Below, piece by piece: positions 31,164 to 64,000 of a DNA stretch of 64,000 bases. The notes under the pieces are model-generated. The model was given only the letters and a program-made list of their open reading frames with translations, ran no database searches and was not told where the DNA came from. Each line of letters opens with the position of its first letter. The stretch's first letter is position 1. The DNA comes from Candidatus Omnitrophota bacterium (lineage in GTDB: Bacteria > Omnitrophota > Gorgyraeia > Gygaellales > Profunditerraquicolaceae), in contig WOZK01000030.1 of assembly GCA_011620275.1 (NCBI GenBank), positions 70,242 to 134,241 of the forward strand. Reading direction: 5' to 3'. Both the position numbers and the translations under genes were made by a program.

Positions 31164-34100
31164 TCACAGATAAATATCCGTCATATTGCAAACCCCAGAC
31201 AAACCGATACTTATGAAACTTAATGAAGGCAGTGAAAAAGACATCCCCTGCGTATAGAAAGTGGAACCATTCTCCTCGCCGCGAAAGACTGCGTTGTATT
31301 GTTCAACAGGCCTCCATCCTTGCGCAGAATCCATCCCAGGTTCAAGAAAGCGCGCTGCGTCTTCATCGAATATCCCTACCGCGTCCCTTTCGCTGCACCC
31401 TCCGTCCAACGGGTTAAAAACCTCGGCTAAAACAGCCGGCGTTCTCTTCGGATCAAAATCTTTAATAAGCTCATCATTGCCATTTCTTAACGCTCGGATA
31501 AGCTCTTTATCTACGAATTGCCGGCCAAGAATATACACAACCATCCCGTCGATATCTTTTAATTCCCCTATTTTCCCTTGAGCCTCCATCAACTCGATCA
31601 AAAAGATAAATCCGAGCATCGATTGCGGTTCTCTCCGCGTGCGCAAACGGGTAAAAATATTGATTATCGAAAACATCCTGTCCGCCATATAATACAGGCA
31701 GACAACGTTTTGTATCAAAACAGGTCTGATACAATTCAAAAGAAGCAACCGGATCATACCGATAAACGCCTCCGGCTGGTTGTATCCGGCGCGCTCTGAG
31801 AGATAGAGAAAATCTTTTATTATCCCCTCTTTCTCGGTTTCAGCGAGACTGAATTTACGGGCTATTTTTCCGGCAGCCGCATAATTATCAGGTGATAATG
31901 AAGAAAGGATATTACGCCTGTGGCCGGGATAATCATGCTTAAAAGTGTCGATAGTGCTGTATAATGAAACGGCAATGGAATTTTTTTCTTCGGGAACCGG
32001 CCGATTTTCCGCAAGCACCGCTCCGTCACGATATACAACGGAATTAACCGGCACATAGCGCAGAAAACTCAAATAATCCAGTAAAGTCCTGCCTTTGTTG
32101 TCTCCGGAAAGCGCCTCTTCCGGTAATATTATATGCACCGGCCTGTGCTTATTGAATACGGCATAAACGATAAAGATCCCATAGGCCTTAAATATACAAT
32201 CAAATAATTCTCCTCCTGTCAAAAAGACGGTTATGGGCGTTTCAGCGAAACGCGGACATAATCTATCGGCGGAGCCCCGTATCGCATCGACATCCGTATG
32301 ATAGATAATCCGGGGAATTCTCATACATTCGATTACGCAACCCCAGTCTTTTCCCCACACGTCAAGAGCAGCTATCAATTCATCTTCCGCCGCACGGTGT
32401 GATTCTTTATAATCTGCAACGGTAAATACGCCTATTACCCCTCTTCGCCCGCTTCCTCCATCTGCCACAACCGTGCCGCCGTTAACAACCCGTGCCTTTA
32501 TCATTTCCACGTAAGGCGCAATATCGTTAAGTATCACATCCCCTTGATCGCATTCTCCGCCGTCGCCCTTTTGCCCTTGCCCTTTTTCCGCAAGATTGAA
32601 ACCGGGATGCGTTTTCCTCATCTCAAACGCAACGGTTATGCCGAATTCCCGGGCGATAAAATCTACGTACGGCATGGAGGGTTTTTCCCCCGAATAACTA
32701 AATTTTTTCTTAGCCATAGACACTAATATCTGCCTGTCTAAAACAAGCTTCCCCTTCCTTTTTTCCAAGATTCCTTTCCCACTCCAGAACACGCTTAAAA
32801 TCTTACCGGGAGTGTAGCGGGAATTTGTAAAAACCGATACCGGGATCAGCCTCTTCAGGTATTTCTCATCAAATACAAAAGGCCCTTTTTCCCATTGTTC
32901 CCGTATAATCCTCATTAAAACCGGAATCACATAGTTTTGAGTCGCGGGGAAACTCATGGCTGTATTTTTTGTCAAATCAGGCAAACAATAATAGGTAAAC
33001 ATATCTTTTCCCAGTATTCCGCGCCGCTTTAAAAAATCCTCGAAATTTTTATCAAAAACCCGTAATCCCCATTCACCTACGGAAGAGGTGATCATTCCGG
33101 CGTTAAGCTTATTCAGTTTGTTTTTAATAAAATCGTATTTGCCTTTGGACTTACGGCTGATCTTAAGATATTCCATAACCATTCCCGAAGAAAAAGGATA
33201 TCCCAATTCACCGGATTTTATTCCCGCCAGGATTTCAAGTAAGAAATCCAGCGACCCTCCCGGCAAAACAGACAACTCTTCCCAGAATTTATTTTCAATG
33301 CCCCAAAACCGGCCGTTCTCTATTTCCACAACCGGTATCTTATCCATGCCTTTTAATTCTTCGTATAATCTTATGTCGGCCCGCATCCGGAGCAATTGGC
33401 CATACGTACCGTCAAGCAGGGATTGGTGAAATCTACCGGTAGAAACATATTCGCATAACAGCATTTTATCCGCCTCCAATTGCTTGACTATTTCTGCAAC
33501 TGTTTTCATATCCTCCGCACAACCAAAATGCGAGAGCACATCTTCCCGGGTAAAATCCATCTCCAGGAACATTCCGCATTTTCCCGGGATAATAACCGCG
33601 CTCTGTTCGGCTATCCAGCGTATTACGCTTTCCCGGCATACCGATCCTTTTAAATATGCTTCATCTTCCATTAATTCCCACTCTTTCAATAATTCCCCGA
33701 TAATCCTGATCGTTTTTCCGGACACTTGCCTTGCCGAAAAGTAATTTTTATCCTCCGCGCGCACCGCCGCCAGCATCTCACGCATACGCACGGGAGATCC
33801 GCCGGTTATTTCGAAAATTCTTTTCAAAACATGGGATTCCCGGGCGGATAACGGATGAGACTTTATGCCCGCGATAGTCAACCTTCTCCCGGCATTTTTC
33901 TCTTTAAAGAACTTCATAAAACCGATCAAACGGTTAAACCCGCCGGACCCGCCGGATAAAATCATAGTTTGAAATTTATCCGTAACGGAATACCTCTTTT
34001 CTACAACCCCGCTCCGCTCAAGATTCTCCGCTATCGCCGACACCGCGCTTCGGTCGGCGGGAGTGCGGTTTCCCGGAACAAATTGTTCAAGAATATCTTC

Positions 34101-37100
34101 GATGGTAAATACAGACCTTAACAAAACTTCTGTACCGCCCGAAATTACCACACTGCTTCGCATAACCATCCATTCGATTAAATTCTCTTCACTCAACTCC
34201 TTCTTTGACCGCTCATCAACGGCATCATCCGTAAAACCTCCGGTAACCGCGAATCCGCCGTCACGCTGTCTGACCGCGCGGCTATAATCAATCTGATCGC
34301 ACAGTAATGAATACCGGTCCGATTTTAGAAACAGCAAGAGAGGCTCCTGTCCGCCTTCAGCTCTTATTTCCAGCACAACCGGCCGCGGCCGGTAAAGCGC
34401 CTGAATATCCAACCCGGTAAAATGAATAAGCCAAATATACGCATCGTAACGGTCTGCCATCCTTTTAATGATCCGTGGATACATATCGAGCCCCCGGCAT
34501 ATACGATGCCGCCGGCTTTCTTCGTCCCGGGCTTCTTTTATAAAACGCGTATCAAAGCCGAACTGACTGGTTATCCCGTTGCCTAAACGCGGGACCCTGA
34601 ACCTTCGCAAGGCCCTGTTCCCTCCTTCAGTAAGAACCGGCCTGTATTTATGTATGAAATCTCCCACTCGCGCATCGAAAGAAGAATCTTCCAGGGGGAC
34701 ATCAAGCCCGACCGCTTCTGCCAGATATTCTTTGATGCCCGGATATAATTCCTCGTACCGTTCTTGGGTAATCCCTGCGGCTTGATTAACCGCTTTCCAG
34801 TACCAGAGGAACACCCAATCGGTAATAGTCTTTTGTATATTGATCAAAGCGTTCAACAGCCGCGTGTGATAGGCATGGTCGAAATCGAAAGTAAGCCCAA
34901 AATGCGGATAGACGCGCAATTTCCGCACCAGGGTATCGAGATACAGGGGGAAAGACAAATAAAGATTACTTTGCGCGGAGGCCCCGCACACCGGGCCTTC
35001 AATGAGGATCTTGACGTCCTTACTCACAGACGGATGGTTGTAGATTCGGTGAAACGCCAGCAGCTTATCATCGAAGGACGAATACAACTCGCCCCTTAAT
35101 TCATAAAGCACCACTCCCGCGGGTTTTTCTCTCTGTATGGAAGCAAGAAAAACAGCCAGTTCCCGGCAATAGGATATGTATACGGCAATTTCTTCCGCTG
35201 GAAGCGAAGTTATACTATTAGGAGAATGCACGGAGACACACTCCATGCCGAAATCCTGCCTGATCCCGGCCAAAAGCATCTTCATATTCTCCAGATCATC
35301 AAGCTCCGAAAGAGTTCCTATAAATAATTCGAAAGTGCGAAAATCCAGCCTCCAAAGCCTGCGCGCCTGCTCCAGATTGGCATCCAACGCGCATTTACCG
35401 CTGAATACTACACCTAATTGTCCGGTCCCGCCGTCCTTGTCCTTTTCTTCCCATCCCGCCTTTTCTTCCACCGCTCTTTTATCCCTTTTCCAGGAAACGG
35501 TTTTATATAGCGCATACGCCGCCGCTCCCACGGCCAGTAATATATATTCACATTCCAACATATGTTCACTCCATACCCCGAGATCCTTCACCGCGGAATT
35601 AAGGCTGTAAACCATCAGCAGATATAAATAGCCGTATCCGAACGCCTCTATGGCTCTGTAATATATCTTCTGCCGTTTCTTCTCAATTTCTTCCGGTTCC
35701 CAATTCTTTACCAGCTCCAGCACAAAATACGTAATGACCATACCGGCCGATAAAGCGGCAACCGTCAAGTATGCCCCGTATAATTGCAGAGATACAAAGG
35801 TATTGACCAACAACGCCGGGCCGGAGATCAAAGGAAACGCCAACGGCATAATCCAATAAGGAATACGAGTGAATGCGCAGGGAATGGGAATCTGCGGAGT
35901 GATGTATATGAACAGCAATGTTACGCTTACGATTTTCAGCATTCCCAACGCGGAAGGACTGACAGCCGCTCCGGTATATCCTATAAAGACGTAGAATCCC
36001 CCTATCAAAACCGAAACAAGCAGCGCTCGCCGCACTCCTTCTGTTTTCTGGCCGGCATTCAAGTTCAATCCGCCGGGGCCGGTAATGGCCATAAAAGAGG
36101 CGAGTAACCCGGGATAACTTATAGCCAGGATGTAACCGGCCAGCACGACCACGAAATCCGCCGCATAATCCGCGCCGATAACGGCGAAATAGGGTAAAAA
36201 AGGCGCCCCCGCTATAAACGCCGGAATAAAAAACCCCGTTGCGTGTATCCAGGCCCAGCGCGCGCGAATGCTCACTCTTCCCGCGTACGCGCGCCAGTAC
36301 AGCCTGTCCTTCCAGCCGCCGTCAAGATGTTCTTTCCCGTCCGCATTGGGAATAGGGCCGTTATCTATTAAGAAATGGACGCCGGCTGATGGTAAAGAAT
36401 TTAGCTCGGGCTTAAGGACAGGCGCATTTCTATATACCTTTACCGAAAAAGCAGGCAGCACCATACGCCCATGTTCCCCTGCCCATATTACTTCACTTGT
36501 CGAACCGCATCCCCGAGAAGTAAACCCCGTTAGAGAACTTCGTCCTCTAACGGTTTGCTCTGACGGTGGCATTAAACTACCGTCAGATTGGGAATCGGAA
36601 GACCACCTACTAAAGTCGGTGGCTTTCTCTAACGGGGTAAACATGCCGACACTCTGCAACTCTTCATTCGCATAATCGGTAATTTGGCGATCCGTCGACC
36701 TGATCCGGCTTATATCTACGCACACAATCCGATCCCCGACTTTTCTGTATGCTTCCACCATCGGCAACGTCCAGACGATAATCAACCCGTCTTCTTTAAC
36801 AATCCGCCCAAGCAAGTCAGCAACGTATTTTTTAATATCAAAGTCCCCGGACAAATCCAGCCAGCCGAGGCCTTTTAAGACTAAATAATCGGGCTTCTCA
36901 TCGGTCAAATATCCATTCTCTTTTAATCGCGCCAGTTTTTCTTTAATAACTCCAACTTCTCTCGCATCAACCGCTATATTGATGAATGAATCGAAACAAC
37001 GGATACGTTCATCTCCAGAATTATATTCGCTGTCGAACAGTCCGGAAATACCATTCCTCACGGCCCCTACAGTTTGAGATGCCGCGTCCTTCATTGTCTC

Positions 37101-40100
37101 CGGAGTGATATCATTCCCCCGGGTATCTTCATCGAGATTGACGCTGATAATTATTCCCGTATATGCTTTTTTTCTTGTCGTCAATGCCGCGAAGGGAACA
37201 AAATCGCCTCCGGCCAGAAGATAAATCCCGGTTTTCTTTTCTAAACCGAATTCTGCCACGACTCTTTCCCACAAATATAAATATTGGGTCCAAGCATCTT
37301 TTTTTGTTGGCCGGGCATTTCCGCCGTCCGTATAGTCAGACTCATCTTCCACGGCTGACGCAAGTCCTTCTGCCAGCATTAAGGCATGTTTCTTAATCTC
37401 GCCCTCCGGTAAATGCGGAAGAGTCGTTATGACTTCGTCCTGAAAACCTTTACGGGCAAAGTGATATGTTTCTTCGGGAACCCCCTCGATAGAAGCGGCA
37501 TTGAGGTCCTGGATCATATTAGGAAAGAAATTTTCGAGGAAGTAACCTCCGGTAACTAAATCCAGATACAACTTGGGCGCAGCCAAAAACTCATATCTCA
37601 GCAGGGAGAAAATCTTCAGCCAATGATAAGATGTCCTTCCTATTTCCAGCGCGTAGGGAATAATCTCCGCGGTCTCATTACCGGCTGTGCCGCGGCACAA
37701 CTCGCTCATAATTTTGGCCTGGACATACGGCCACGAATTCAAAGCTGTGAACTCATCACGGCGCATATCCGCCTCCGGCCACTGTCTGCACAAAAGCTGT
37801 TGAAGCGCGGCGTCTGCCGCGTCACTGCCTGTCTGCTCGCCGAACGGCAGTTGTCCATCCGAATCAATCCTTCGACGCAATTCATAACAATGACCGGGCC
37901 TGAAAACGGCTCCGTGTATATCCACCAATATCCGGACATTCCCTGCCGTATTTAGACCAAACGCTGCCGCTGCAGGCTGAATACCGGGTCCGCCGCGAGC
38001 GGTCCAATAATCCGGAATTATTGTTTTATCCGAGAACAAAACTTCTCCCCGGACATTTTCTCTCCGCACATTGCTGTCGGTTACCGACAAGGTTTGAATG
38101 ATCCGATGCAGACTCAAGAAAGGCATATTCACGATAAGCTTACCCTCATACATTACCGCGGACTGCCTGAACATAAGTAACCTGTCTGATTCCAGAGGTT
38201 TTTTCTGCAGAAGCGCGAGAAATCGCGGCATATCGAATGTGCTACCTGCGCGCTTTTCCTGAACGCCGGATTCATTCAATAACGCGAAAATTTCGCGGAA
38301 CATCTCCCGGAACTCATCCCAAATATCCGAAGAAACAGTCAATATTTCTTCCGGGCCGGAAACAGCCGAACGTACTTCCTGATCAATCCGCGCGTTAATA
38401 CGCCGTGTCTCGTGCAGAATATCCTCGATTCCACGAAGCGAATCATCACTTCCACCGTCTTTTTCATCCGGATGCATCGCCATCCAGAAATCGACGAACA
38501 AGTGTTTCCGTAGATGATCAATGGTATGGGGATTGCTAATACGCAAATATGAAAGGAGGAATACGGCAGTGCCGACGGGCAGTGCGGAAGCTCTGCTTCT
38601 CGGGGGGCCGGTTTTACTCTCTAGGTAAAGTCCGAATAAGGCCACGGCTAAAATACCGGTTTTGTTCCGCAGGGCACTCCCGGCAGCAATATAATCTTTC
38701 AATTTCTCGAACTCAGCCGCTGATTCAGGCCGGCTCTCTCGGACGAAACGCGAAAAATCATCCGCGCTCAAACCTCCCGGATTCCCCTGGGGGATAACCG
38801 CGTCTATTCTGCGCGCGCATTCCTCAACAGCCCCGCCGTCTGAAGCCGAATCTTCCTTCACTTTTTTTTCTTCCTTTTCCATTGAATTCACATTCCTGAT
38901 CCGTTCGGAATCTTTTAAAACACTCCTCTTTATTCCTTCATATAACACTTCCCGCAGCCGTTTAACGATTGCGTCTATGAAAGGCGCATTACCATATATA
39001 TCCATAGCCCGCTCGGGATAACCGCTTAATCCCGTTTTAACATTTCTGTTGCCTCCGTCGCCGAAAGTTCTCTTTTCTTCATCCCCGATAAACGGATAGT
39101 CCCACTCTTGCACAAGTGAGCTGTTTATACGCTCTACAATAATACTTCCGGACAAATCAACATTGACTTTCAGCAAACCGTTCAACGCGAAACTAAAATA
39201 TCCCCGGTCTTCATTGCAAAACACAGGGTCTTCATAAACCGCAGATATCACATCATGCAAAAAGCCGGCGTATGTTTCTTGCTGTTGCTCCGATGTACGC
39301 GAAGAAATATGCTCGAGAGATTCGAGAAACCGCTCTCTCTGATAAGAAGCTGCGGGCTTATATCCTTTCTCCTGCAGCTCCGCTTTCACCAGATTATCCG
39401 CACGTAATAGGACGACCAACAGTGTATTGATTATATACTCCAGATCTTCCAGGTCCCTGATGTCCACCGCGGAAAGTCGATTATGTAACACCTCATATAA
39501 TCCACGCGGAATCACCACGGTTACTTCTCTACTCATATCCGGCGTATATCCCTCCTGAAGATTTTCAAGATAGAACCTCCTCTTTGTAAGTATCCGCCAC
39601 AAGCCTTCGTGCTGCTGAAATTCCGCTATGATATTCTCCCAATAGGGATAAACGAAAATTGAAAGATCGCCTCTATAGGAAAGGCCTGTAAGTATAGGAA
39701 AAAACACAATGAGACCTATGGCCATTTCTAAAGGCGTTCCCAACCGGATCAAATATAACCCTATAATCGAATGCATGAACGAAGGCAGAAGAACGGCAAA
39801 CATATCTTTGGCAAGATTTTCCGCGGGCAAACCGCATGTTGACATAATATGATAACAAGAAGCCTGTGCTTGGAGTCCAAGCAAATCATCCTTCTTCCTT
39901 TGGGGAACCGTTGAACTGCGTACAAGTGTTTCAAAATCACCGCGAAATATGAGTTTTTCACCGGCGGGATCAATAAAAAATACGTTCCACCATTCTTCAT
40001 CCCCCGCTATTTCCAAAACCTTTGCTCTATCGACAGCGAGCAAAGCATTCCTGGATTTGAACAGGGATGGGAATAACCTCTCCAATGCCCCTCCTCCCTC

Positions 40101-43100
40101 ATAGCGCGATACGACAATCCGCAGCCGCCTTTGGCCAAATAGTGTCCCGGCGCAATAATGAATAATCTCATGCCCTATACCTATGCCCCAGAATAAAGGT
40201 ATTGCGGCCGCAAGAAACAGCATGACCGATCCCCCTAATCCCAGGCCCCAATGAGCGCTCAGAGAAAAACCCGGTAGCAAACCGGATACGAACCATCCCC
40301 CCGCAATAATCGCAAAAAGCGCCAACCGGGAATAATTGAATGATATCTGCCGCGCGCCCGCGAAATAAAACTTGCGCATAAAGTGATGTGGCCTGGAAAT
40401 CGCTCTATCCCCCGGGTTATCGGCATACGGCCTGCCGCCGTCGCCGTTCTGTGCGCGAGGATATCCTTTCAGCGAGGACATTATATGGTTTGCCAATGTT
40501 TTGCGTTCCCAGAAATTTGGGCTTCTACGGTCGGCTTGCTCATGTTTCAGAATCACCGGCAGAACAATCCGGATATTCTTGCCCGTCGGATCGACATCCA
40601 GAGATCCCATACCGAACTTAAAAAACAGGTAAGTATATTTATTTGTTGGTCTGCTATCTACGGGCTTGCCCGCCGCGTAAGCATCAGCGAGACAAGTTTC
40701 GCCATGGAAGCTTTCGGCGGCGAGGCTCGCGGCTATATTCAGGCGTATATAATCAAGCGGATGCGCTAAAATATGCTCAAGAGCCTCGCCGTCTCCACGG
40801 CTTATCCCGATCAAATCATCGATGATTTCTCTTTTGGAGTCGTCCGAAATACGCGAGAAGATTTCTTCTCCTGAACACCATTGGATCTTATAGTGTGTCG
40901 ACGCCTCACCCCATTTCTCGCTGTATTTTTTTATCCGGCTCAGATAAACAAAGAACCTGCCTACTATTTCTTCTCTGCCGCTGAGAAACAATACTCTCGT
41001 CTGATCGTCATCCCCGCCTTCAGGGCCTAAGCTATCAAAAAACATCAATTCCTTGAATAACGCATCCCCACCCCATTCCTCGTCATTCCACTGCTCTTCA
41101 AGCCAGTTCTCCAGCTCTTGAAGGATAGACGAATAGTTAATAGGGAAATCCCCGTCACACAAATATTCACCCTCATTGATAATCCTGTTTTTCCCTCCGT
41201 CCGGATTATTAAGCCGCCGCTCTTCGCGTCCCACGCCAGACATCCCCCCGGACTTTTCTGCCACCATTGTCAGGATACGCGCAAGCTTTGCCGCCTGCTC
41301 GCTATCACCTTTCTCTATCAATTCCAGGATCCGCTTTTCAAATCTTTTGGCAATAAATCTTATGTCATCGTCCGGCAAAGAATAGAATTCCCCGAATCTG
41401 CAAATAGCGTCTAAAATAACGGTGTTATCCGAACCCAGCAGGAACGGAAATAGCGCCCGTACTTCCCTCCCCTCCAGATAAAGCAGATCGCGCGGCCTGC
41501 GGTCCTGCATGATCAGCAGGCTTACTTCATGGGATAGATCATTCACTCTTATCCAGGTGTCCTCAGCAGGTTCACGCCGCAGTTCTATAAGAGAATCTAT
41601 AAGTTCAAGGAACAATCCGGACAATTTCTGCTCCCATTCAGCCCCGCCGTCAAACAATTCCTCTGCCCTTTCCAGACGCGCCGTCTTTAGCGCCCTTATT
41701 ACCGTCTCGGCCTCCCCGGCTATCGCCGATATTTCATTGTCGAAGTAGAGCTCATCCGCCTGTCCGCAGGAAGCCGCGGCTCTTTCTATGGAATCAACTC
41801 CCTGCGGACGCAGAAGCTCCATTTTGAGAATAAGACCTATCTTCTTCTCCCAAGATAGGCCTGCTGTCGAACCAAGAAACCGGCGACATTTCATCCGCCC
41901 CTGCGGCGCTCTCAAAGGTGTGTTGCCTTCGAGTAGATCATACACGTCTTTTTCATACGCTTCCGCGGAAACGCTTAAAAGATCATAGGTGAACTGTTCC
42001 AACGCCCCCTCCCCGAATTCTTCCGCCGATCTACGGTTGAATCTGCTGTACGGCGTCATCAAATGCTCTCCCTGTTTGCGCAAGAGGATACCGCGAAGTT
42101 CATAGTCGCGTCCCCATGCGGAATAGATCGCTATCTTCGGCGGCCAATCCACCCAGGAAACATGCCCGGATATGAAAGAAGCAAAGGAACCAAGATAACT
42201 GTCCGCGGCGATATGCCTGGAATTTATGCCGTCAAGGTAGTATTCATATGAAAACCGGCTGCGGGAAGAAATCAGATGAACGATATGGGCGTTCTGCAGC
42301 GGCAATGTCTGTAAAAGACTATGAATTTCAGCGACGCAGAAAGAAGAGTCGTCGATATAATACAATGCGGGCGGGGCGCGCGAAGAATACAACTCTGCGG
42401 CCAGCATTTTCGCCTTCTTCCCTTCGCCATAACCGCAGAAACGGATATTTCCCTCCGGAATATCAATGCCGGCGCTCTTTAATACCGCGAGAGTCCCCGC
42501 TTTCGTGCTTTCATCACGGCCGGTCAGAACGACAATTCTCAAGCCAAGGCGTTCAGCCGTCTTTAGAAGATGATCCGCCCCTTCCGTCATCCGGTAAATA
42601 CCCAGGCGCACTCCCAATCTCTCTACATCAGTATATTCTTTCATGGCTACGCTTTTGAGCCAATCCACCTGTTCCTGCATCCAGATCCCGAACTCTTCCG
42701 GCTCTTTGATCTCCCCGGAGCTGTATATATTGTTCTGTATGCTGTCCTTGATCATATAATACCGCCTGCGTATAAAATCCGACGAAGGGTAATCCAGTGT
42801 CGTCCGGAGCAAAGTGTCGTCCAGGTCCACGATAAGCACCCCGCCGCTTACAGCAGTCCTCTCCATATTGCCGGCCGCTTCAAAAAGGCTCCCGGTGGAA
42901 AAACTAACCGGGCCTGCCCCCCCGTCATTTTCGCACGAGCGAATACTTGGCCTTCCGATAGGCCAAGGTAAAATCCGACACTCCGCGGAATAATCTGCTC
43001 CGCGTTTTTGCGCGTAGGCCGGCAGATTATTTATGCTCCTTAGATAACCGATCATACCGGAAAGAATAGCGGCCTCCCTGGTGTCGTAGTTTTCTAACGT

Positions 43101-46100
43101 TCTGTCTATGATTTCGCTGGTACAAGCCGACAAAGGCGTCTCGGTGGAGCGTATCAAAAGAATTAACTTGGACAGGTCTATACCGCAGAATCCCAGGAAA
43201 CGCTTGAATCCGGAAGAAGAACTAATCAATTCTATTGTTTTCTCCGGTTGCGGCGCTATGGATGTAACGGCGTTGCAGCTATGAAGGATGCCGCTGATAA
43301 CCGACAATAATGCATATTCAAGGTTGTATCTTTCTTTAACGGCGAAAATAAGGAATAGATACCCTCTGCGCGCCGGGTCATAATTCTTCAAGAAGCCGCC
43401 GGCGTTCGAATACTTAATATGGTCGAAAACCCACATCAACGGTTTCAACTGGCGGCCTGTAACCTGATAAGTTGTCTTCAATTGCTCGAGTATCAGCCCG
43501 CAAGAAACGTCGAAATCTGGCGTCCGTCTATCGGCGTCTCTCCCAGAATAAGAAACCAACAAATCCGCCATCTTTCGCAAATCCCCCGTTTGCGAAAGTG
43601 AAATCTCCGCCTTGAAGAAGTCATTTTCCGGCAGTAACTGATGGGAAACAACCCGGACTTCTTCATTAAGATACCTTCGGGCATCACCGTCCGGCAGGGT
43701 GCGCTTTAAACGCACCTGTCTGCCGATCCCCTCTTCATATTCCATACCAATATGGCTCAACTCTATTCGGTCAAAGCCAAGGCTGAACCAGCGTTTGATA
43801 GTCTCTCCCAGGCGGAGTTCTTCCGTGCATATTCCGGAGGTGCTCATCTCATCTATTCGCTCAAAGGCGTGAAAACGGGGATTATACAATATTTCCTCCA
43901 GGGCGAACGCGAATATTTTCCTGCCGAAACCGCTCTTTGCCCATCGTTCCTTACGTATGGATATTTTTCCCAACGCGCAAGTATTTCTCCCTTGACTGTC
44001 CTTAGAAACCGACACTTCAAAAGTCAGCACCCCGCGTCCGTCATCCGCGGCCGCCCTGTATATATACAACCCTCCCCCGGCCGGCCTCAGATAAGACACA
44101 TTCTGCTCCGATATGCGCATCCCGTCCCTGTAAACGACCACCGGCCCGGATCCGCCGTCGTGAATATCTTCCGCGGAAATCCCCGGTACCGATATCAAAC
44201 CGTTAATGCCCGTTATATCTTCAGCCCGCGCCTGGCGCGCTGCCTTCCGCCATCGCTCATCCGGCACTGCCGGCAGAGGCGTTTTCATCTCTTCAACGTA
44301 ACCGAACAAGCCCGCTTTCATGACTTTACCGAATATAAGCTTTCGATCCTCCACGCGTACGCTGTCACACCTTAGTGTCGCGAGGCGGCTGCGAATAATC
44401 TTCCATAATTCTCTGCTGTCGATACAAACTCCAGTCATCTCAAAGTAACCGGCAGTCGGAAAGCTATCTCTGATATCATCAAAAACAGCGCTTAATAACA
44501 TCCCCGCAGAGACAGAAGGCGCGCCAATGCCTTTATAGATCGACAAATCCATCATTGTTCCCGCGTTGGCCTCGAAATAGAATTCCACTGTCCCCCATTT
44601 GCAACCGCAGATAACGTATTCTCTCCCATCTTTCCCAAAGATACGAGTTATACGCAGGCGAGAATCTTCAAGACCAGTATCCTCCCGGATCAACCTGCCG
44701 CCGTCGGGTAAAGAAATAAAATAATCCCCTCTGTAAGCCCGGTTTAAGAAATTATTCCGTTGGCAATATAGTTTATTCAGTTTGTCCTCTCCTGATTCTC
44801 CCGGGCACAAGAGATTGAGAATCATATAATATAGACTTTCTCCGTTCCTCCCGGCGGCATCAAGGGCCACTCCACTACCGGTAATTTCCTCCATAAGAGG
44901 CTCCATCAATAAATAGCCCGGCCTTAGTGTTTCATCCGAGAAAATACGGTAAAGCTCCCCAGGGACTCTTTGTGAAGACACGAATTGCTTTAACCTCGGC
45001 AGATCATCCCAAGGACAGGCGAATAAAGTATCTATCCCGTCTGTTTGCTCAAGGCGGCCCTCAGCGGCATTAAATTTCATTTGATCCATCTGCATACGGA
45101 CGGCAAAATATGTATCTCTTCCTATTTCTACGCGTAATATCCTCACTCTTTCCAATATGTTTTCTGTATAGAAATAACGCATCGGCAAACCTAAATCGAG
45201 ATCTCCGACACAAACAGTGGTAACACCTGACAAATCATTTATCTTCCCGGTTTCGCGGAAAACTATTTCACCGTTGGGTGAATTACCGCATTCCCCGCAG
45301 CTTATTTCCTTACAAATAAGATCACCATAGTATTCGCTTAAATTCCTCTCCTTATTAAGATTAACCGCAACCAGGTCTTCCAGTTCTGCTGCGTAAGGAA
45401 CAATGCCCCGTTTTCCTAAGATCATTGCATCATACGGGCTGAATCCGGCAAGATAATCCCGCTCTTTAAACCCGAATTCTGCCATAATATGCGGAACCGA
45501 CATACGACCTTTCCCATACGGCAGCAATAACGAAAGAACTCTAAAATGGTCAACATTGATATGCAATTTCTTCATCCCTTCTATTAGAAAATGCGGCATA
45601 AGGCAGCAATCGCCATACCCGCAACTCAAAACCTCTTGAGGAGAAAAAACATCCACGTTTCGCTCGATAACACCATATTTAATATATTCCCCATAACCGT
45701 ATTTATTCCAGTCCAATTTTTTATTCATTAGTTCCGACAACTTCCGCAGCGCTATTGGTAAAGCTGTTTTTTCTCGGCCGCCGTCCTTTTCATCCGGATG
45801 CATCGCCATCCTTCTTATCTGCCACTCCGATCCCAATTTATCCCGGCCTTCGGAAACGTCGCGTTTGGGATTACTTATGCTTATGTAAATATCGAAATTG
45901 CCGTCGGGATAACAATCCTTCAGTTTTACGAACATCGTGTTTATATAACGCTCCACTTCGTCCTGTATTTCTTGTTTCGCATTCGGGTAGGAATATTCCC
46001 TCCATTTTATATTAGTCGTTTCCTTCGCGTATCCGGGAGCCATATATAACAGGAGGTCTTTATACTCTTCCAGCGACAAACAAGCCGTCACACCGTCTTC

Positions 46101-49100
46101 ATCCCAGGAAAACCGTTCCGCAAGCGATATACCGGAAAATGGATGCAAGGATACTCCGTTGTTCCTCACAAATTTCTCCAGATAATAAGAAATTCCTCCG
46201 TTATCATTCTCGGCGTGATAAACAAAATTTCTGGCACTGTTCAATTCCCTGGAATCCGGCAAAGACGGCAATACGCCGCGGTGCGCGTCGTATAACAACC
46301 TGAAAACGGAAAACTTTTTATTGAAGCCGGCGGTTTGTTCATAGAAGTGTTTCAGGAGAGAAGAGAACTTGAATTCATATAACGTATGAATTCCCTGCCT
46401 GTTCCGGCCCAGACCGTCGATCTCCTTCTCCGCGGAATACTGAGGCGCTCCCGTACTGAAGTAAAAAACTCTGCTTAATTCCCTGATGAAACCGATATCG
46501 ACCTCGTCGCGGAATACCAGATTGAATTTATGCACCCCGGAAACAACTCCGAGAATCCCCCTGATCCGGGAAATGTAACGCCGGTAATGCTGCGGGCGGA
46601 CTTTCGATTCCTTCCGCCTGACATCGCCGACTATCCGGTAGAACTCCTTGAATGTATCTATTCCGTAACTCCGCAGAAAAGCATTTCCCCGCTGCCTTCC
46701 GGTGCGTATCCCCCATATGCTTTCCGCCGCCAGTTCATCCATTTTCCTCAAGAACACCCCCATATCGACATCCGGCATAAGGACATCCCATAGAACGATG
46801 GCTTCGAGGACATCAAGCAAATCATCGAAAAAGATAGACGTATTTCCCTTGTTTTCCCGGATGGAAAAATAGGCGAATTCAAGGCATAAAGCCGCCAGCG
46901 TCCCTTCCGTAATATCAACCTTATGCCTGCCGTAAGTCTCGAAAAGGGAGGCAAGCCGCCTCCGTAAATATGCCGGGTTTGGAATATACGCGTCAATATT
47001 TTCTCCGAATACACTGTTATAAATCCGGGCCACATCGATATCTTCCAATGCATCGTTTATTTCCGAGAGAACGGCAACAGCCGGATATCCATACCCGCCG
47101 GCATCCCTTAGGATTGTGTCGCGTTCTTCTTTATGCAAACGCAGGAAAAAGTTGGTATCCTGCCTGAGTATATCCTCCTCATCCGCGGAGTTCAGTGAAT
47201 TAAGCTGATGCCGGAAAGCAAAAGTAAGGATATTATGCCTGTTACTGTTAGAAGGTTTAAGCGCCGCATCAAAGATAGAAACCGGAAAATAAACAACGCC
47301 GCCGCGTCGCTGATAAAGAAATATATTATTCTCTGTATCCTTGTAGAATACAAAAGAGAACTCGGTTGTCCGTCCCTTGTCTGCAAAAATATTTCCCCAT
47401 TCCTTATTTTTCTTTATCAAAGAAAGAGAATTCTTTATAACCTGCCATACTTCGGACTCGCGGTAGCCATCGCAGGAATCGATTATTACATCTTTGTTTA
47501 CATACTTCCCCGAGACAACCGGTTGTAAACTTACCTCCGCCCTATCCGCTTTCATATCGCTCTCGCAAACCCCGCGTTCCCCGCCGTCCGCCGTTTTCCC
47601 GCTGTCTGACAGTAAAGCATTATGGAAATCTTGTGATATATTATTAGGGAAAGAACCTATAATGAGAGGATTCAACTCGTCATTTTGGAGGGAGAATTCA
47701 TAAGGAGGTAATCCCTTGTCTATAGGCGGCGCGCGCGAGGGGACTTTTCCTCTTGTTAAAATATCATAAATGGAACACCGGGCCTCTTCAGTCCGGAGAC
47801 CGGCAGGGGGATTCATTACAATGGACGTTATCGCTTCAAACGGATGAATCCCCGCTATTTCATCTCGTGACCCTCCTGCGATATCCTGAACTACTCCGCA
47901 CCTGCCGCCGTCTTTGGCGCCGCTACTATTAGCCCCGTTATGTTTAGACACAACCACAGGTACCAAACGTTTAAATCCGTATCCGATGTATCCTGGATGT
48001 GTATTGTAGAAATTGATAATTTCCTGTATATAGGAAGAATTTTCCGGTATCTTTAAATACACCGTGCCGGTGAAATGGATACGCGGATCGCGTTTTTCTA
48101 ACGCGTACAAAGAACGGCAGATTTCTTCGACCTGTAGAAACGGTATATTATCAAGCAAAGAGGTACCAGACTCGTGCGTTTCCAGAATTTCCGCCACCCG
48201 GCCCCAATCTTTATCTAAATAAGCTATCAACAAAGGGTTAAAATCATTTTCAAATTCAGAGTTTTTCTCTATAGTGCGCAGATGAGCAATGATCGCGTAG
48301 TGTCTTATCCAGGAAAAGTCGGACCACATTTTCACTTCAATCCCCGAAACCGATATTCCTTCTTCTTCCTTGTTTGGCGCCTCGATAATACCGTCAGGCA
48401 ATCCATATCCTTCTCCACATATACCATTGCGTACCAACATCTTTTCCACATCCTTTTCTCCGCTGGTAGCAACGTACGGCTTACTGGTAAGCGCTGCGCG
48501 CTCAAAGATAAAAGAAGGCTGATCCGATATCTCAAGTTCTTTCTTTAAACTGTCCTTAAGTATAGCGATGGGTAAATCCACCCTAAGGTGATGGACTGTA
48601 AGCGGAAAATTTTCTCGGAAGAGCATTTCAATTACCTGAAAAACACTTCCGATTCTGCTCATATAAGTAAAATTACGGCAATCGGGTTCAATACCGAACA
48701 TGCGCCACACGCCCATCATATCCTTTAATAGCTTCAAATCGCCAACCAGTTGCAAAGAAACCGTGGAAATAAGGATATTGTTTTTTTCTAGTAATTTGAC
48801 TCTCTTGTTAAGTTCGCCTTCAGCTCCTGGTGAAAGAGCTAAATGAATAGTCTCCCGGCCTACAGGCAATCCCAGTCTGAACAGGGTGTGGCGCGCCCGC
48901 AGTCTCCCTTCATAAGAAATATCCGATTTATGTTCTTCTTCTGCCCGTTCAGGCTCGCTTTTATCAAGTTGTTCTTGCGCCTTGCCGGCCTCTTTAAGAA
49001 TACGTCGGGTATTCTTATTTAAGACTTCTATGATATCCGAAAAATGCGGTTGATATGACCGAGAGTCTTTCATCACACGGTATACAGCTAAAGTCAATGC

Positions 49101-52100
49101 CCCGAGAGTAAGCTTGCGCGCTCCGGCAAATTCACGCAAAGCCTGAAAGCTTTCCTTCAGCTTAATACTAAGCACATCCTCTTCGGATAAAGAATAATCT
49201 TCGCTCTCTTGCGCGTCAGATACCGCGGCGATCGACGCTTGTGCGACGTTGTGCCAATAGAGGGCGAACAGCAAATCACGTAAACTGAGCGTCTGTCCGG
49301 CCGCGGAATAAATATCACGGCCTTCCTGAAGAACTCCTTGGATTAAAAGCACTAATTCGTCCTCGGCCTCTTTCCGGGTTTGATATGCCAACCCTTTCGG
49401 ATATAAAAACCCGCCGCAATAATGACGCTGCGCTTTTATTTGAAATAAAGAGCCTTTTCTACAGGCTTCTTCCAAATATTCCGCATTACTATCCGTATAA
49501 TAGGACTCAATCTCAGCCGCAATGATGCCGATGGTAAGTGTAAGGCTGACGCGGGCACTCACTTTTTCATCAGGGTCGTATACCGTATACACAAAACCCT
49601 TCCGATCGGAATGCCAATAAACAATCATCCCGCCTTTCCTGGCCTGTTCCAGAAACACACGCGCGCGCGCGTCAAAATGAGCCCGCTGGGACGCCGTGTT
49701 CTCCCCGAAATAGGGGATATCATTATAAAACGCCTGCCTGGCAAGGCTGCGCAGAGGTTTCCCGTATTCAGAAGACCAGCGTAATGGAGCAGGCCGGCGC
49801 CCGGGATTTTCACAGAATACCGCATCCCACATATTCACCGCCATATATAAATCTCTATACCGGTCCTGCTTGACAAACCGTTCAAGATCGGCGCCGTAGA
49901 GATCCACAAGGACATTCAAGGCCTGTTCGGGGATCTTGCCGGAAAGAATCAAGACCTCAGGAGATGTACGCAGAAGAAATTCTTTGAGTGCCCGATTCCT
50001 CTCACGAGACAATATCTGCCGCAGACGCGGTAGAATATTTTTGTTATCGGCCCCTCCATCTTTACCTGTTCTTTTACGCCCTCCGGCCGGTTCAGTATGC
50101 CCGCCGTTTTTTTCTTCTCTTATACCTGTATTTAGCCGGGGGGAAATAATTCCTTGCGCGTCAGAGCCCTTCCGAATTTCTAACTCATATCCGCCGTCCT
50201 TGGTATTCTCTAAAGGCAGATTCAATACTGTTTGCGAAAATAGTCCTAAAATGTCCGTCTGGTTCCTTTCTCCGTTATATACTATTCCTTCAATAATCTT
50301 CACCGCAATATTGTTCAACCATTCCCCCTCCGGTCGGAACCCAAACCTAAGATAAAATATTAACGCGCCGGCCCCTAAAGCATCCGGGTTGTTAATCTGG
50401 CAGGAAGGAATAATAAATCTGTCCAACATGTATTCGTTATTCTCAAAAATACTGTTTACGACCGCCAGCCGCGAAGGAAAGATTTCCCTTGCCCTGTGTT
50501 GTGGCCTGTATTCCTTAAAAAAGTGCATACCTAAAGATAGGTCTCCTCCAAATAAATGGCTGAGACCGTAACCAATTATTTTCTGTGTGTTCTTATCCAT
50601 AAAAATCTCGAGAAATCCTTCCAAGTTGATGTCTCTTTGATCCGGGATTAGAACCAAAGAAGTATTTTGGTCCAACTCCGCCCGGTAAATAGTTTGAAGA
50701 TCCAAGAGACCAAGATTCGCCAAACTGTTTTTTTGTCTAAGTAATTCCACGGCAGGGATGGATAGAGTTTCAGCAGATAATCCGGTTATTTTATTGACTT
50801 TTATCTCACAAGGACGACGCAGTAATTCTCGCATCTCTTTGGGAAGCATCCACATCCCTAATTCCCAACGTAAAGAAGGAATCCCCTGACCGGAAGCAAG
50901 GAGCGGAGGAAATTTTCTCCCCCCATCCATTCGATCTGTCACCGTTACTCTCCCACTTCCCAGCACACCTTCCAACGGACACGATGTCTTTTTTATATTA
51001 CCCCCGTCTAAATTGCCGGAGACACCAGCCTGAGGTCGGGGTTTGTCAGGTAACTTTAAGGCTATATAGAAACAAGTTATCGCAAGCCCCCAGCATGTTC
51101 CTGCCGGAAAATCTAAACCGGAGAGATACGATAATAAACCTAAAGGTATAATCATGCCTGCCAGGATTAAATATAGAAGCGGACTCTCTTCCTTGGACTT
51201 TTCCGCAATATCATCTTCGCTTATAAACAATAATACCGCGGCCCCGAATAATGTTCCGCCCCATACTCCCTGAATCACAAAACCCGCGAGCATAAATATA
51301 AAACCCTTGATTGCGTGAACACCTCCGTCACTACGGACTGCTCCCGAAGATCCATTGTCTGTGTCTTTCCGCTTTATTTGCGCTTTCCACCATTGCGGCA
51401 GACTGGAAACCGGGATGTTTATATCATATTTCTCCAATTGTTCCAACCCGGTCCAATCACGTTCCCATAGATGCAAGATGGCGGGGGAAGCTATCTCTCC
51501 CATCACATACCAGTCGGGAAAACATTCCACAAAAAATTCATATAAACGTGAATGTATTAGCGAACCATAACCTTTGTGTTGGAACTTCCAGCTCATTGCC
51601 AGATTCTTCAGCCAGAGAGTTTTGTTTTTATTGACCTTTCCCGCTTTTTTCGAGAAAGGAAAATTAGTAAATTCAAATAAGAAAAGAATACCTTTATTGC
51701 CCGCGCCCACTTCATGAACATAAATAGGATTTGTCCCAATCTGCTCATATCTCGCCTGCTCAAGGATTTCCTTTTCAGCAACCAGCAGCCGGATCTCAAA
51801 AAGCTCCTTTTCACCTATTATCCTGACATTCTTCATATACGCGTAAACCAATGTTCCTTGACCCGCGGTATATTCATATCTCCCGTTCCAGAACGAGGCA
51901 CGACCTCCCTGAGGATAATCTTCACGTATTAGTACTCCTAAAGGTCCCCCGTTCTTAGATTCCAACTCCTGCCCCAAACGCCCCAGCCAGGAATAATTCT
52001 CAAACATATCCGCCCGGGCGCCGCCGTCAAAACCGAAAGATTCATCTCCCGGCTGATATATCCCTCCCCTTTCTCTATACCGTTTCAACAACGGCTGAAG

Positions 52101-55100
52101 AATATTGCAGGGAATCGCCCAATGCAGCTCTCTCACAGGCGCGTCTTTCCGCAACAGTTCCTTGACATAGGAGGAACTGACATTTGTATAAACATACGGC
52201 ACCAAGAATACTGTCGGTATCGAAGGAGCCAGTAAAAGGTTGGCCCAGGCAAGCGGAAGTTCGCTCTTTAGATCCTTATAGTCCCTGACCCCGCGCCGAA
52301 ACACCCCCGCGCCAAAACTGCGCGCGCAATCAACCGTCAATCCGTCGTAACAAATAACCTTTACATTAGTAATCCCGGCGGTTTTCAGGCAAAATTCGAT
52401 CATCGCTTTGTTCTCCTGCCGCGAAAACCACTGCTTCCCCTCCTTATCCGGGTTGGGACCGATACCGATGTAAACAGTATCGAACATCGCCACCGCCCTG
52501 CGCACTACTTCCAGGTGCCCGTTGGTGAAAGTATCGGCAGACCGGGAATCGTCCTTAAAATACCCCGGATACACGGCAATTATGCCTTTGCCTGTTGCAT
52601 CGCGAATGGGTTCCCGGGAAAACCGTAACGTTCCAGATGTGGATAGCGAAGACTGCCGTTCCCCGCCGTCACGGCTATTTTTGCGCAAACTGCCGGCCGC
52701 TTCTCTTTTAGCGGAAAGACGATGATGGAAAACCTTGAACCATCCGCGGTGTTCCTTTAGGAAATTATACGCCGCACTCAACGCTTCCTGAAAACTCAAA
52801 TCATTTTCGATGCCCGGGTAAATTATACGGTCTTTTAGACACTCCATAGTCTTTGCCGGAGAATATCCTTCCTGATCAAGCCGCATACAGAGTTTCGCTA
52901 ATAGAACAAGATTATCCTGGTACAAACTAACATCCCCTTTTGAAAAGCGCGCGGCCAAAGGAACTCCGATCTCCAGCACTTTACATATATGGAATATTCC
53001 GGCGTCCAGTAATCGCTCCCCCATATCAACGGCAGGTTTGACCCATTCGCCGTTGTATCCCTCTAAGGCCGCGAGCATCTTTGGCAGGGCTCTTTCACAT
53101 AGATAGTTAATGCTTATTCTTAAGGTCTGCGCTTTTTCAATCAATCCGCTTATTGGCGAAGTCGGAGGAATAACAGAGATTCGTTCGGTGGTTTCCCCGC
53201 CGTCTTTTTGGGCCTTTTCCTGTTCCTGCCTACTCACCTCTGGAAGAATACGCCTGCGTATCTTTAAGAGGTATTTTTTCTGACACGGAACCCCAGCCTT
53301 CCGTACTGCCTTATACAAATCATCGCCATTCAAGTCGCCTTTCTTCTCGATCACGTCTAATATTATTTTCTTAAGCAAATAATCTCTCGCTTTACAACAC
53401 AAATCCTTCCAATCCTTAAACCAGTCGTTACGGCATTTATGAAAAGCAATTTTAATTTTCGGGTCGTGTTTAAATACTTCTGTTTTAGAAATGGGACTTG
53501 CCTTTCTACTTGGCCCTCTCTGAGCGCGAATTTGTTCTAACGCGGCGTTAACCCTTTGAAATAATTCTTCTTGAGTCTTTATATCCTGATAAATATCCTC
53601 TTCATTAGTTATTTGCAATATAAACAACCGGAACCGGCAGTCTAAACGATATTTTCCTCCATATGGAGCAGGCGACAACAACTTTTCTCCTCCGCAATCA
53701 AGCTTGCCTACCAGCCTGCTGAAGAATTTGTTATTCATTAAAATGTAGGAAAGCTTCCCGTTCCACCTTTTAACTTTGGCCACGTAGATCTTCTCATTTG
53801 GTTTGGTGTTATGCGCGACAGCTGTCAACACCTCCCGTTCATCTTGCGATAGCCCGTTCCAGAGCGGCATGAACATCTCAGAATCTACCGTTTGCTCTGC
53901 CTCATGCGTTCCGCCGTCAAGAACATCCATACTCCCTTTTTCCACACCGGCCGGAAAATCAGGCTTACCATCCGCTCTATACTTCCGTATCTTCATCTTT
54001 GATATCTGGCCGATGTACAAAAGATACAGGCCGGACAACAGTTCCCGGAGTATAGGATCCATGAAAGACTCCGGCGTGTAACCGCGGGAAAGAGCCACGG
54101 TTATTACATATGGCTTTACCTTTTTCTCTTCCAGAATCTTACAGATTCCTCGGATCTGCTTTCGTAATATCCCCAATATGCCCTCTATCTCCGCTTCTTG
54201 CTTGTCTTCAATCGGGCTTATATTTTTATCCCAGAAGTAATCGGCGTCGAAATCGAGGATCACCGGTTTGCGGTTCAGGCTGAAATCCGGCAGTTCATCC
54301 GTATAAACCTTGTGCACTTTTATTCTACGCACCGCGCCTACCGTTATATCCCATCCTGTATTTTCTCTGAAATCCATCACCCAACTTCCTTCTTCCAAAG
54401 GATGAACCGGCCGGAAATAAATCACAGGATGCGTTCCGGTGCCATTTTTAACCGTCAGGTCAGCAACATACATATCGATCTCCTTCCGCTCACTGATAAG
54501 AAAATTGGCGAAATAACGATAGCTGTTGACGGGTTTGAATATGGGCGAGACATCGGGATTCCAATAAAGATATTTTCTTCGACCATCACGCATATACTCC
54601 GGCAATACCCAGTATATCTCATCGACATATCCATCATATACGGCCGGGGATATAAATTGATCAAAGGCGGGGCGTCTCCGGGCGACGGCCTTGATACTTC
54701 GAGACAACGGGTAAAAATCCCAAATGTCGCACATATCCTGATGCGTGTCAAAATGTATCAAAACAGCAGGATTGGTAATACGCTTCAGGAGCCTGCCGAT
54801 CTCCCAAGATGAAAACGCGTCCCCATGGTTTTCCATAAGAAACATCCGCGGAGCCTTGGAAGGACCTTGAACCTCAAAAATGCTATCCCTCCCTGCTTGC
54901 AAAATCGTTTTTACTAAAGAGGACCGGCTAAAGCTCTCCCTGCCGCCGCGTATAGTGTCTCTTACGGCCGAATCTACCGCTTCTGTACTTACCATCCCCT
55001 TTTTTAAAGAAGCATCTCTTGGAGTCACTAATTTCCCTTTGCCGCCGTCCTGTTCACGGGCATAACCACGGTAATTCTGCACAGCAGCCGCTCCGCCTTC

Positions 55101-63962: not shown

Positions 63963-64000
63963 CCTCTGCCGCAGACGGACATTGTCCGATTCACCCGGTT

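Follow-up and report, generated by a model that had tools for sequence, protein, structure and literature searches.

The short direct repeat by which the peptide MAMHPDEKDGG is encoded twice in the giant open reading frame (ORF) of the window, that is, of the 64,000-nucleotide (nt) stretch of contig WOZK01000030.1 from a Candidatus Omnitrophota bacterium analysed here, is probably a patch of 35 nt that was ectopically copied during module shuffling before the split of two related strains. The patch consists of a linker tail and the codons for Asp-Gly-Gly (DGG) that close it (GG ATG GCG ATG CAT CCG GAT GAA AAR GAC GGC GGC). Taken alone, the duplicated patch is a modest recombination scar, and the DGG-jointed, strain-variable module architecture in which it is embedded is the more interesting feature. 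All coordinates given below are those of the window, position 1 being its first letter.

Two exact occurrences of the 24-mer TTTCATCCGGATGCATCGCCATCC are present in the window (38462-38485 and 45788-45811), and no match to it was obtained in 100 shuffles. The exact repeat is 25 nt long (38461-38485 and 45787-45811) and grows to 34 nt if two mismatches are allowed (38452-38485 and 45778-45811). The copies are spaced by 7,326 nt, which corresponds to 2,442 codons, they are in frame and in direct orientation, and both are located in the minus-strand ORF 31164..63962, where they encode MAMHPDEKDGG at amino acids (aa) 6052-6062 and aa 8494-8504. An earlier note on this DNA had described such a pair of exact 24-mers, 7.3 kilobases (kb) apart within the giant ORF. 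The pair, its identity, its spacing and its peptide were confirmed, but the positions assigned to it (38459-38482 and 45786-45809) deviated by 3 and 2 nt. No other exact direct repeat of the ORF is as long as the 25-nt one, the runner-up having 15 nt, and in 200 codon shuffles the maxima ranged from 13 to 18 nt. A chance origin of the repeat is therefore ruled out, both by its length and by the lack of shuffle matches.

Copy A (45777..45811, minus strand; GG ATG GCG ATG CAT CCG GAT GAA AAG GAC GGC GGC) encodes MAMHPDEK followed by DGG at aa 6052-6062, and forms the end of the linker of module S21, directly before module S22. Copy B (38451..38485, minus strand; GG ATG GCG ATG CAT CCG GAT GAA AAA GAC GGT GGA) encodes the same residues at aa 8494-8504 and joins the truncated module S30 to module S31. 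The block of modules S22-S30 between them (38486..45776, minus strand, aa 6063-8493), together with one patch, makes up the 7,326 nt or 2,442 codons of the spacing. The two copies differ at three of the 35 nt, the codons for K, G and G being synonymously different. Identity is limited to 34-35 nt with sharp borders, beyond which the sequence on all four flanks is unalignable or unrelated. The flanks quoted in the earlier note, which were said to diverge immediately, were thus confirmed, and the sharp borders between unrelated flanks, in a repeat not due to chance, support the shared DNA-level origin which it implied. Its description of the repeat as an extended version of the DGG punctuation also holds, since the patch lies directly on DGG at both sites. 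A wider homology between the tails of S21 and S30 was considered as well and rejected, because the 'ISNP' common to both is without significant DNA or protein support outside the patch.

Given the same peptide, the DNA identity of the copies is only mildly surprising, because both of them use preferred codons. For the five residues of MAMHPDE that have synonymous codons (A, H, P, D and E), the codon used is always the one preferred in the ORF; the probability that the seven MAMHPDE codons are identical is 0.016, and the probability that at least six of the nine synonymous-capable codons are identical is 0.13. As preferred codons account for much of the DNA identity, the point to be explained is the sharing of the eight residues that precede DGG. 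The same consideration speaks against a nucleic-acid signal, such as an RNA hairpin, an internal ribosome-binding site with its start codon (ATG GCG ATG) or a protein-binding palindrome (CATCCGGATG, GATGCATC), and this explanation appears very improbable. It is true that an ATG begins the patch in both contexts, that copy A carries AAGGA 5 nt before the second ATG, that the perfect 10-nt and perfect 8-nt palindromes (CATCCGGATG and GATGCATC) are found nowhere else in the window, and that a hairpin of 5 base pairs (bp) is predicted, with z = -2.1 for the isolated 25-mer. However, in a 60-nt context the fold z values were -1.6, -0.2 and -1.2, and those of DNA folding were about 0. The Shine-Dalgarno-like bases are not present in copy B or in the related contig L002 described below, there was no match in Rfam and no promoter-like site nearby, and the lone terminator-like match is antisense and within shuffle expectation.

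The giant ORF (31164..63962, minus strand) encodes at least 10,932 aa, with the frame open to the window edge at its 5' end, and is built as a chain of 38 DGG-delimited, mostly unrelated segments. DGG occurs at 37 sites, as compared with 4.2 expected, while the neighbouring housekeeping genes contain just 2 DGG in 8,177 aa. The 38 segments that result from cuts after each DGG are mutually non-homologous apart from S03 and S04, and the Pfam domains (FAD_binding_2 with Succ_DH_flav_C, an AP_endonuc_2 TIM barrel, UPF0489, CTP_transf_like and a weak HAD match in S25) each lie inside a single segment, none of them straddling a DGG. Unrelated units of the size of stand-alone proteins, split by a recurrent DGG, are a polyprotein-like feature. 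Enrichment of DGG was also found in the related long proteins P0001, P0004, P0006, P0010-12 and P0015, where it is 3- to 14-fold and, except in P0010, at least 8-fold. At the 35 junctions of the ORF other than those of the patch, the tails before DGG have nothing in common but DGG itself. The Asp of the DGG sites is encoded by GAC at 34 of 37 sites, as against 30% GAC elsewhere in the ORF. Selection at the nucleotide level on the DGG codons was nevertheless rejected as an explanation, since GAC already encodes 24 of the 34 Asp residues that are followed by any Gly, which makes the bias mostly an effect of codon context; a strong preference for GAC-GGN is a property of this genome.

The patch in related genomes

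Fragments of giant proteins from relatives were obtained by an exhaustive HMMER search with aa 5862-7015 as the query. The locus L004 (JGI 3300045909, Ga0496406_004747; 16.4 kb) carries P0001, P0003 and P0002, and L005 carries P0006. The third relative, L002, is contig JBAZDY010000136.1 of the metagenome-assembled genome (MAG) 'Candidatus Omnitrophota bacterium SO_2017_LW3_111', and was the only match when a degenerate form of the 11-mer was searched in 185,579 species genomes. The degenerate 9-mer MHPDEKDGG gave zero matches in JGI metagenomes or IMG/VR, word-indexed protein searches with S21/S22, S29-S31 and T+S31 gave none, and neighbour look-ups of the locus returned the same strain only.

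Over the tail of S29, S30 and S31, the DNA identity of L002 to the window is about 90.6%. MAMHPDEKDGG is present in L002 as well, at the orthologous S30|S31 junction; the copy there ends in ...GAA AAA GAC GGC GGC, with one difference in 35 nt from copy A of the window and two from copy B. As L002 carries the patch at S30|S31, the copying would be older than the split of the two strains. The paralogous copies within the window, with three differences in 35 nt, are no closer to each other than copies across strains, with one or two. The gene conversion proposed in the earlier note can hardly have been 'recent', because a relative with about 90% identity already has the patch and the copies within the window are no more alike than those of different strains.

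A different situation was found in L004, which has S21, S22 and S30 and in which the patch is absent. In the window, S21 (45777..47579, minus strand, aa 5462-6062) belongs to a family whose tails show a conserved D-x-Y-I-S/T-I/V-S-N-P, then a variable linker of 8-45 aa and then DGG (P0001, P0007, P0010, P0012 and P0015). The S21 tail of L004 reads ...EWQMRMSAR-DGG and is followed by an unrelated module, while its orthologue of S22 (in the window 44697..45776, minus strand, aa 6063-6422) is preceded by ...AEKANRQKG-DGG. At the DNA level, the homology of S21 between the window and L004 ends at nt 45809 and that of S22 begins at nt 45786; therefore, the part of copy A without a counterpart in L004 is essentially the 25-nt exact repeat. 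S30 of the window (38451..38831, minus strand, aa 8378-8504) corresponds to the N-terminal part of a longer module of L004, its sequence being cut off at the patch. The homologue in L004 reads on as the longer module, without the patch and without DGG, which places copy B at a point of truncation and fusion. S31, which follows copy B (37320..38450, minus strand, aa 8505-8881), was found to have a homologue in L002 only. The patch is likewise absent from L004/P0001, P0004, P0006, P0010-12 and P0015, the 8-mer MAMHPDEK is absent from about 70 DGG junctions of related long proteins, and nothing that resembles the patch (with up to 6/25 nt or 3/8 aa mismatches) was found elsewhere in the window, in L004 or in the retrieved proteins. 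As a separate observation, the giant gene of L004 is split into called ORFs of 3481, 69, 596, 858 and 264 aa, with S23-S24 present twice and modules of the S22 family also twice; the split ORFs could reflect pseudogenisation, sequencing frameshifts or a different architecture.

The position of the patch relative to folded units was considered in an AlphaFold2 (AF2) model of aa 5862-6260, which was built from 12 sequences and spans the copy A side. It contains two confident domains, between which the predicted local distance difference test (pLDDT) score of aa 6035-6065 is below 50, and the ten-residue block that includes the copy A patch has the lowest confidence in the model, with an average of 34. 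The low pLDDT between two confident domains puts copy A in an inter-module linker, and for this copy the location at a module boundary, raised in the earlier note for both copies, is thus supported. The module which follows, S22, matches stand-alone proteins of 328-352 aa from end to end, with Cys57, His96 and Asp116 invariant, including a GYGDC motif. The mean pLDDT of its AF2 model is 72.7. Foldseek matches in the Protein Data Bank (PDB) are weak (E 0.03-0.3) but coherent: they comprise arylamine N-acetyltransferase, SseI, vasohibin and PMT C3, and every one of them is a Cys-His-Asp/Glu enzyme of the papain/transglutaminase-like kind. S22 may therefore be regarded as a candidate papain/transglutaminase-like thiol enzyme, a peptidase or a transferase, within the polyprotein-like ORF, and as a lead rather than a finding.

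The distribution of the patch bears directly on the alternative that MAMHPDEK-DGG is a functional short linear motif under purifying selection, for instance a processing site that is extended, of high affinity or cut at a different time, a signal for docking or degradation, or possibly a cis-cleavage site beside the candidate thiol enzyme S22. Such a motif is unlikely, although several observations are in its favour. Between the window and L002, all 11 residues are the same, but changes are found at 7 of the 17 positions before them and at 5 of the 8 after them, and the identical DNA run extends over 31 nt within flanks of 77-88% identity. Moreover, copy A stands directly before S22, with its invariant Cys-His-Asp and its weak papain/transglutaminase-like fold matches, and longer conserved junction contexts are seen in another lineage, in protein P0009 (see below). 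However, the peptide is found at only 2 of 37 junctions, no other site comes within 3 of 8 residues, and it is absent from the orthologous S21, S22 and S30 of L004 and is thus not required by any of those modules. S31, the module behind copy B, shows no relationship to S22; the genome-wide search for the 11-mer returned the orthologue only, and that for the 9-mer returned none in the metagenome and viral collections. In any case, the window strain and L002 are identical in about 15% of all 25-nt windows, and cleavage at DGG is putative throughout.

The earlier note had named the peptide the best candidate for a functional recognition motif. This proposal is contradicted by the absence of the 8-mer from the other 35 DGG junctions, from the related junctions mentioned above, from the S21 tail, the S22 head and S30 of L004, and from the genome, metagenome and viral collections save for one orthologue. 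The search for the 11-mer in homologues, which had been suggested as a check, found it nowhere but in L002. Beyond its being a linker that ends in DGG, a role of the patch as a general recognition motif is contradicted by its distribution, and this tempting but unsupported candidate was dropped from consideration. The invariant island in a variable linker, as seen in two strains, may weakly suggest a lineage-specific constraint on the peptide. A resemblance of LAM..HPD.K to helix II and the HPD loop of the J-domain was also examined and rejected, as no DnaJ was found in Pfam, at E up to 10, in 120-aa windows over both junctions and in L002.

The relatives also bear on the possibility that one copy is an assembly artefact, whether through chimeric joining at a shared k-mer or through collapse or expansion of a repeat, which is extremely improbable. 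The sequence is metagenome-derived, and the Logan contig SRR10568503_164 stops at about 42,956, before copy A. However, the same contig is 100% identical to the window over 20 kb that include copy B, copy B is independently carried by L002, and the sequence on either side of copy A is backed by L004 as far as the patch borders. All 10,932 codons stay in one uninterrupted reading frame. A length of 25 nt is below the usual assembly k-mers, and Logan uses k = 31, so that the exact repeat is shorter than the final k of common assemblers and than that of Logan. Moreover, a mis-join at a repeat requires two pre-existing copies. Since both sides of each copy have unique flanks, a mis-join could swap their partners, but it could not create a second copy. 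The assembly hazard pointed out in the earlier note is thus made implausible by the shortness of the repeat, by the unique flanks and by the independent Logan assembly, identical across copy B.

Rearrangement at DGG junctions and the origin of the patch

The comparison with L002 and L004 indicates that the patch is not the only trace of rearrangement in the giant gene. In L002, the DGG of S31 is directly joined to S33, and module S32 (in the window 36315..37319, minus strand, aa 8882-9216, 335 aa) is missing. In the window, S32 is flanked on both sides by direct repeats of GACGGCGG, as compared with a single copy of this octamer in L002, a pattern characteristic of gain or loss mediated by microhomology, which makes S32 the model case for modules gained or lost at DGG codons. 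No octamer of the ORF is more frequent than GACGGCGG, with 22 occurrences, all of them in frame, which is twice the number of any other octamer. When the window was compared with L004 and L002, 7 of 14 ends of homology blocks fell within 5 aa of a DGG, where 3.7% would be expected (p = 3e-7), and most of the remaining ends lie 10-38 aa upstream of a DGG. Tails are also shared between modules whose bodies are unrelated: LSDSGKTA-DGG is common to S20 of the window and to an S22-like paralogue of P0006 and P0001, and LAEK..QKG-DGG is common to P0001, where it precedes S22, and to S35 of the window. As the breakpoints fall at DGG or just before it, linker tails together with DGG appear to act as semi-independent junction pieces, and the duplicated patch is an intragenic case of this general pattern of tail sharing.

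A further difference at DGG sites was noted in L005. At aa 501-522 of P0006, the counterpart of S14 of the window (aa 3979-4214) consists, between two DGGs, of just the 12 initial and the 4 final residues, the rest being lost by an internal deletion which spares the head, the tail and the reading frame.

The copying of the patch would be one outcome of such rearrangements. The giant gene may be viewed as a string of modules of stand-alone-protein size, connected by linkers which vary, are probably flexible and have Asp-Gly-Gly at their end. The codons of DGG, mostly GACGGCGG, would supply recurrent microhomology for recombination, and rearrangement breakpoints would therefore come to lie at DGG or in the linker just upstream of it. 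Ectopic short-homology recombination or template switching would then have copied the patch as one of the two junctions was formed, with one crossover or template switch at the shared GAC GGC GGC and the other at a minimal microhomology (TGG/AGG, or ATG). The patch may have been copied from the S21 tail into the S30|S31 junction or in the opposite direction. The 3' border of the patch is the exact end of DGG (GAC GGC GGC, with 22 in-frame occurrences), and its 5' border shares just GG, or ATG with the tail of L004. The alignment of the S21 tails of the window and L004 reaches into the first two patch codons (AGA [AGG] ATG GCG and AGA ATG AGC GCC, respectively). This alignment hints that the patch may be native to S21, although the same ATG could equally have served as the microhomology for a conversion into S21.

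Short templated insertions, microhomology-mediated template switching of the type of fork stalling and template switching or microhomology-mediated break-induced replication (FoSTeS/MMBIR), and short-patch ectopic gene conversion are known at rearrangement junctions. The features described above resemble them in that a tract of 25-35 nt appears to have been copied from a nearby locus into a new junction, with borders that may lie at GACGGCGG and at a microhomology of 2-5 nt. They differ in that the mechanism is deduced here from the end product, and in an uncultured bacterium.

Several points weigh against the copying of a junction patch as the origin of the repeat. Fragments were found in three relatives, none of which has S21-S31 or another diagnostic ancestral adjacency, and the 5' microhomology comprises just 2-5 nt. 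The invariance of the 31-nt run between the window and L002, next to linker sequence that varies as described above, could reflect selection on the peptide, not neutrality. Finally, P0009, a protein of 5,048 aa from another lineage, has no DGG punctuation (2 sites, as compared with 0.9 expected) but about 14 'A/S-S-P-V/I' sites with extended conserved contexts (YLNIAASPI, GNIxxSPV), and a 22-aa junction piece, LPMKKKLTTSPIDKNRCLSLFS, is repeated in it exactly, at about aa 706 and 4357. Different punctuation may thus be used in other lineages, and junction pieces may be duplicated there as well. In view of these conserved contexts and of the 22-aa duplicate, duplicates at junctions may have a function.

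The direct orientation of the copies suggests another possible history, in which they are a duplicated target or attachment-like site. According to this explanation, which is distinctly unlikely, the ancestor had S21-patch-S31, and the 7.3-kb block from S22 to the N-terminal part of S30 was inserted as a circle or by staggered-break repair, with duplication of the 35-nt site, and can excise again. Indeed, direct repeats flank an in-frame block, which begins on the left with a natural start of a module (DGG|S22, as in L004) and ends on the right in a truncated module, and the S21-tail homology between the window and L004, which enters the first two codons of the patch (R-M-(S)A), hints at a patch native to S21. 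However, the S21-S31 adjacency is present in no relative found, and S31 has no homology to the module that follows S21 in L004; an ancestral S21-S31 adjacency was looked for there and rejected, as the module following S21 scores against S31 like shuffles. In the S22-S30 block, a Pfam scan detected no transposase, integrase or other recombinase, the weak HAD match in S25 being its only match, and no terminal inverted repeats were found. A mobile-element reading of the flanked block was rejected for the same absence of recombinase genes and inverted repeats. A length of 35 nt far exceeds the usual target-site duplications of 2-15 bp. Moreover, L002 already differs from the window upstream of S30; therefore, the S22-S30 block is not a fixed unit.

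The repeat may also affect the further fate of the gene. The patch is plausibly the best in-frame deletion substrate in the gene. As its copies bracket nine modules in frame, recombination between them would cleanly excise S22-S30 and give S21-MAMHPDEKDGG-S31. About 25 nt is near the minimal length for efficient RecA-dependent recombination in E. coli. The recombination hazard named in the earlier note is consistent with these considerations, an in-frame direct repeat of 25-35 nt being a plausible substrate for deletion, and S32, which lies between two GACGGCGG octamers, being absent in L002. It can be predicted that strains or reads exist which lack S22-S30 and have the S21-MAMHPDEKDGG-S31 junction.

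Known systems and the meaning of the DGG joints

Junction motifs are familiar from polymorphic toxins, where VENN in CdiA and PxxxxDPxGL in Rhs proteins are examples. The DGG junctions resemble the cassette junctions of these toxins in that a short conserved peptide, together with its coding DNA, marks the point at which unrelated downstream modules are exchanged by recombination, and in that the same junction is found beside different neighbours (Zhang et al., 2012, PMC3482391). In contrast to the toxins, which have one C-terminal tip and toxin-immunity pairs, the giant ORF has dozens of internal junctions, enzyme modules, a motif of three residues and a lineage-specific duplicated tail.

Processing at Gly-Gly is known for bacteriocins, the double-glycine leaders of which are cut by C39 peptidases, and for coronaviruses, in which the papain-like protease PLpro cuts after LXGG. 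As in these systems, the Gly-Gly of the ORF lies between independently folding units, and a candidate Cys-His-Asp module, S22, is part of the same ORF. The invariant Asp at position -3 is a difference, and cleavage at DGG is putative here. The hydrophobic residues of double-glycine leaders (-4/-7/-12) are absent, positions -4 and -5 of the patch being K and E, and the other 35 tails are without a common pattern. Neither a C39 nor an S8 peptidase domain was found by Pfam in the ORF, and the neighbouring ATP-binding cassette (ABC) transporter consists of ABC_membrane and ABC_tran only.

Giant multi-enzyme proteins of Omnitrophota have been documented, and their post-translational cleavage has been raised as an open question, with cleavage points stated to be unknown (West-Roberts et al., 2023, bioRxiv 10.1101/2023.11.21.568195; 'A complete-genome view of phylum Omnitrophota...', bioRxiv 10.64898/2026.06.07.730766). 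Like these proteins, the ORF exceeds 10,000 aa and combines many unrelated enzyme domains (FAD oxidase, TIM barrel, cytidylyltransferase and HAD) with membrane segments, and its closest DNA relative is an Omnitrophota MAG. Neither DGG punctuation nor gain and loss of modules at DGG was found by term searches of the two papers.

The relationship between punctuation and rearrangement may be taken one step further, by assuming that DGG codons, with the short tails upstream of them, serve as the working joints in a hitherto undescribed bacterial 'cassette polyprotein' system. This idea is speculative and rather doubtful. DGG would be both a putative cleavage point, which releases enzyme-sized modules, and a DNA microhomology for the gain, loss or swap of modules between strains, while the patch would mark a 7.3-kb block of nine modules that can be excised and re-inserted in frame, so that the content of a single giant gene would vary at the level of the population. 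If this is true, DGG would supply the information on cleavage points that was described as missing by West-Roberts et al. (2023) for the parsing of giant Omnitrophota proteins.

Should DGG be a cleavage site, peptides ending in ...DGG should be detectable. With the patch as a marker, and with the fragments from three relatives, the giant gene can be described as a mosaic whose modules are exchanged, deleted or truncated at DGG or just upstream of it, often at GACGGCGG. The DGG joints also provide a testable rule for cutting giant ORFs into units for the prediction of structure and function, and they suggest a mechanism by which such ORFs grow and vary.

Other features of the giant ORF and its surroundings

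The neighbours of the giant ORF are chromosomal genes (rpsB, tsf, pyrH, frr, ptsI, an msbA-like gene and lpxB). At its 5' end, the 38 nt upstream of the listed ATG (63963-64000) contain no in-frame stop; the ORF may therefore run past the window, and the 22-aa 'first segment', which ends in DGG, may not be the true N-terminus. In S28 (around 40150-40190, aa ~7925-7945), a HEIIH motif of the HExxH type lies in a hydrophobic, probably membrane-spanning stretch without a Pfam match, which recalls intramembrane metalloproteases. Modules S03 and S04 (62403-63473) are the sole clearly homologous pair of neighbours (28% identity, E = 2e-12) and represent a tandem module duplication. The second-longest in-frame exact repeat, the 15-nt GACGGCGGATATGAG, encodes DGG-YE and is located at 59829-59843 (S05|S06) and 50184-50198 (S17|S18). 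Some of the module heads that follow DGG also recur, namely DGGYEL, DGG[SA]GPV and DGGEK[IV].

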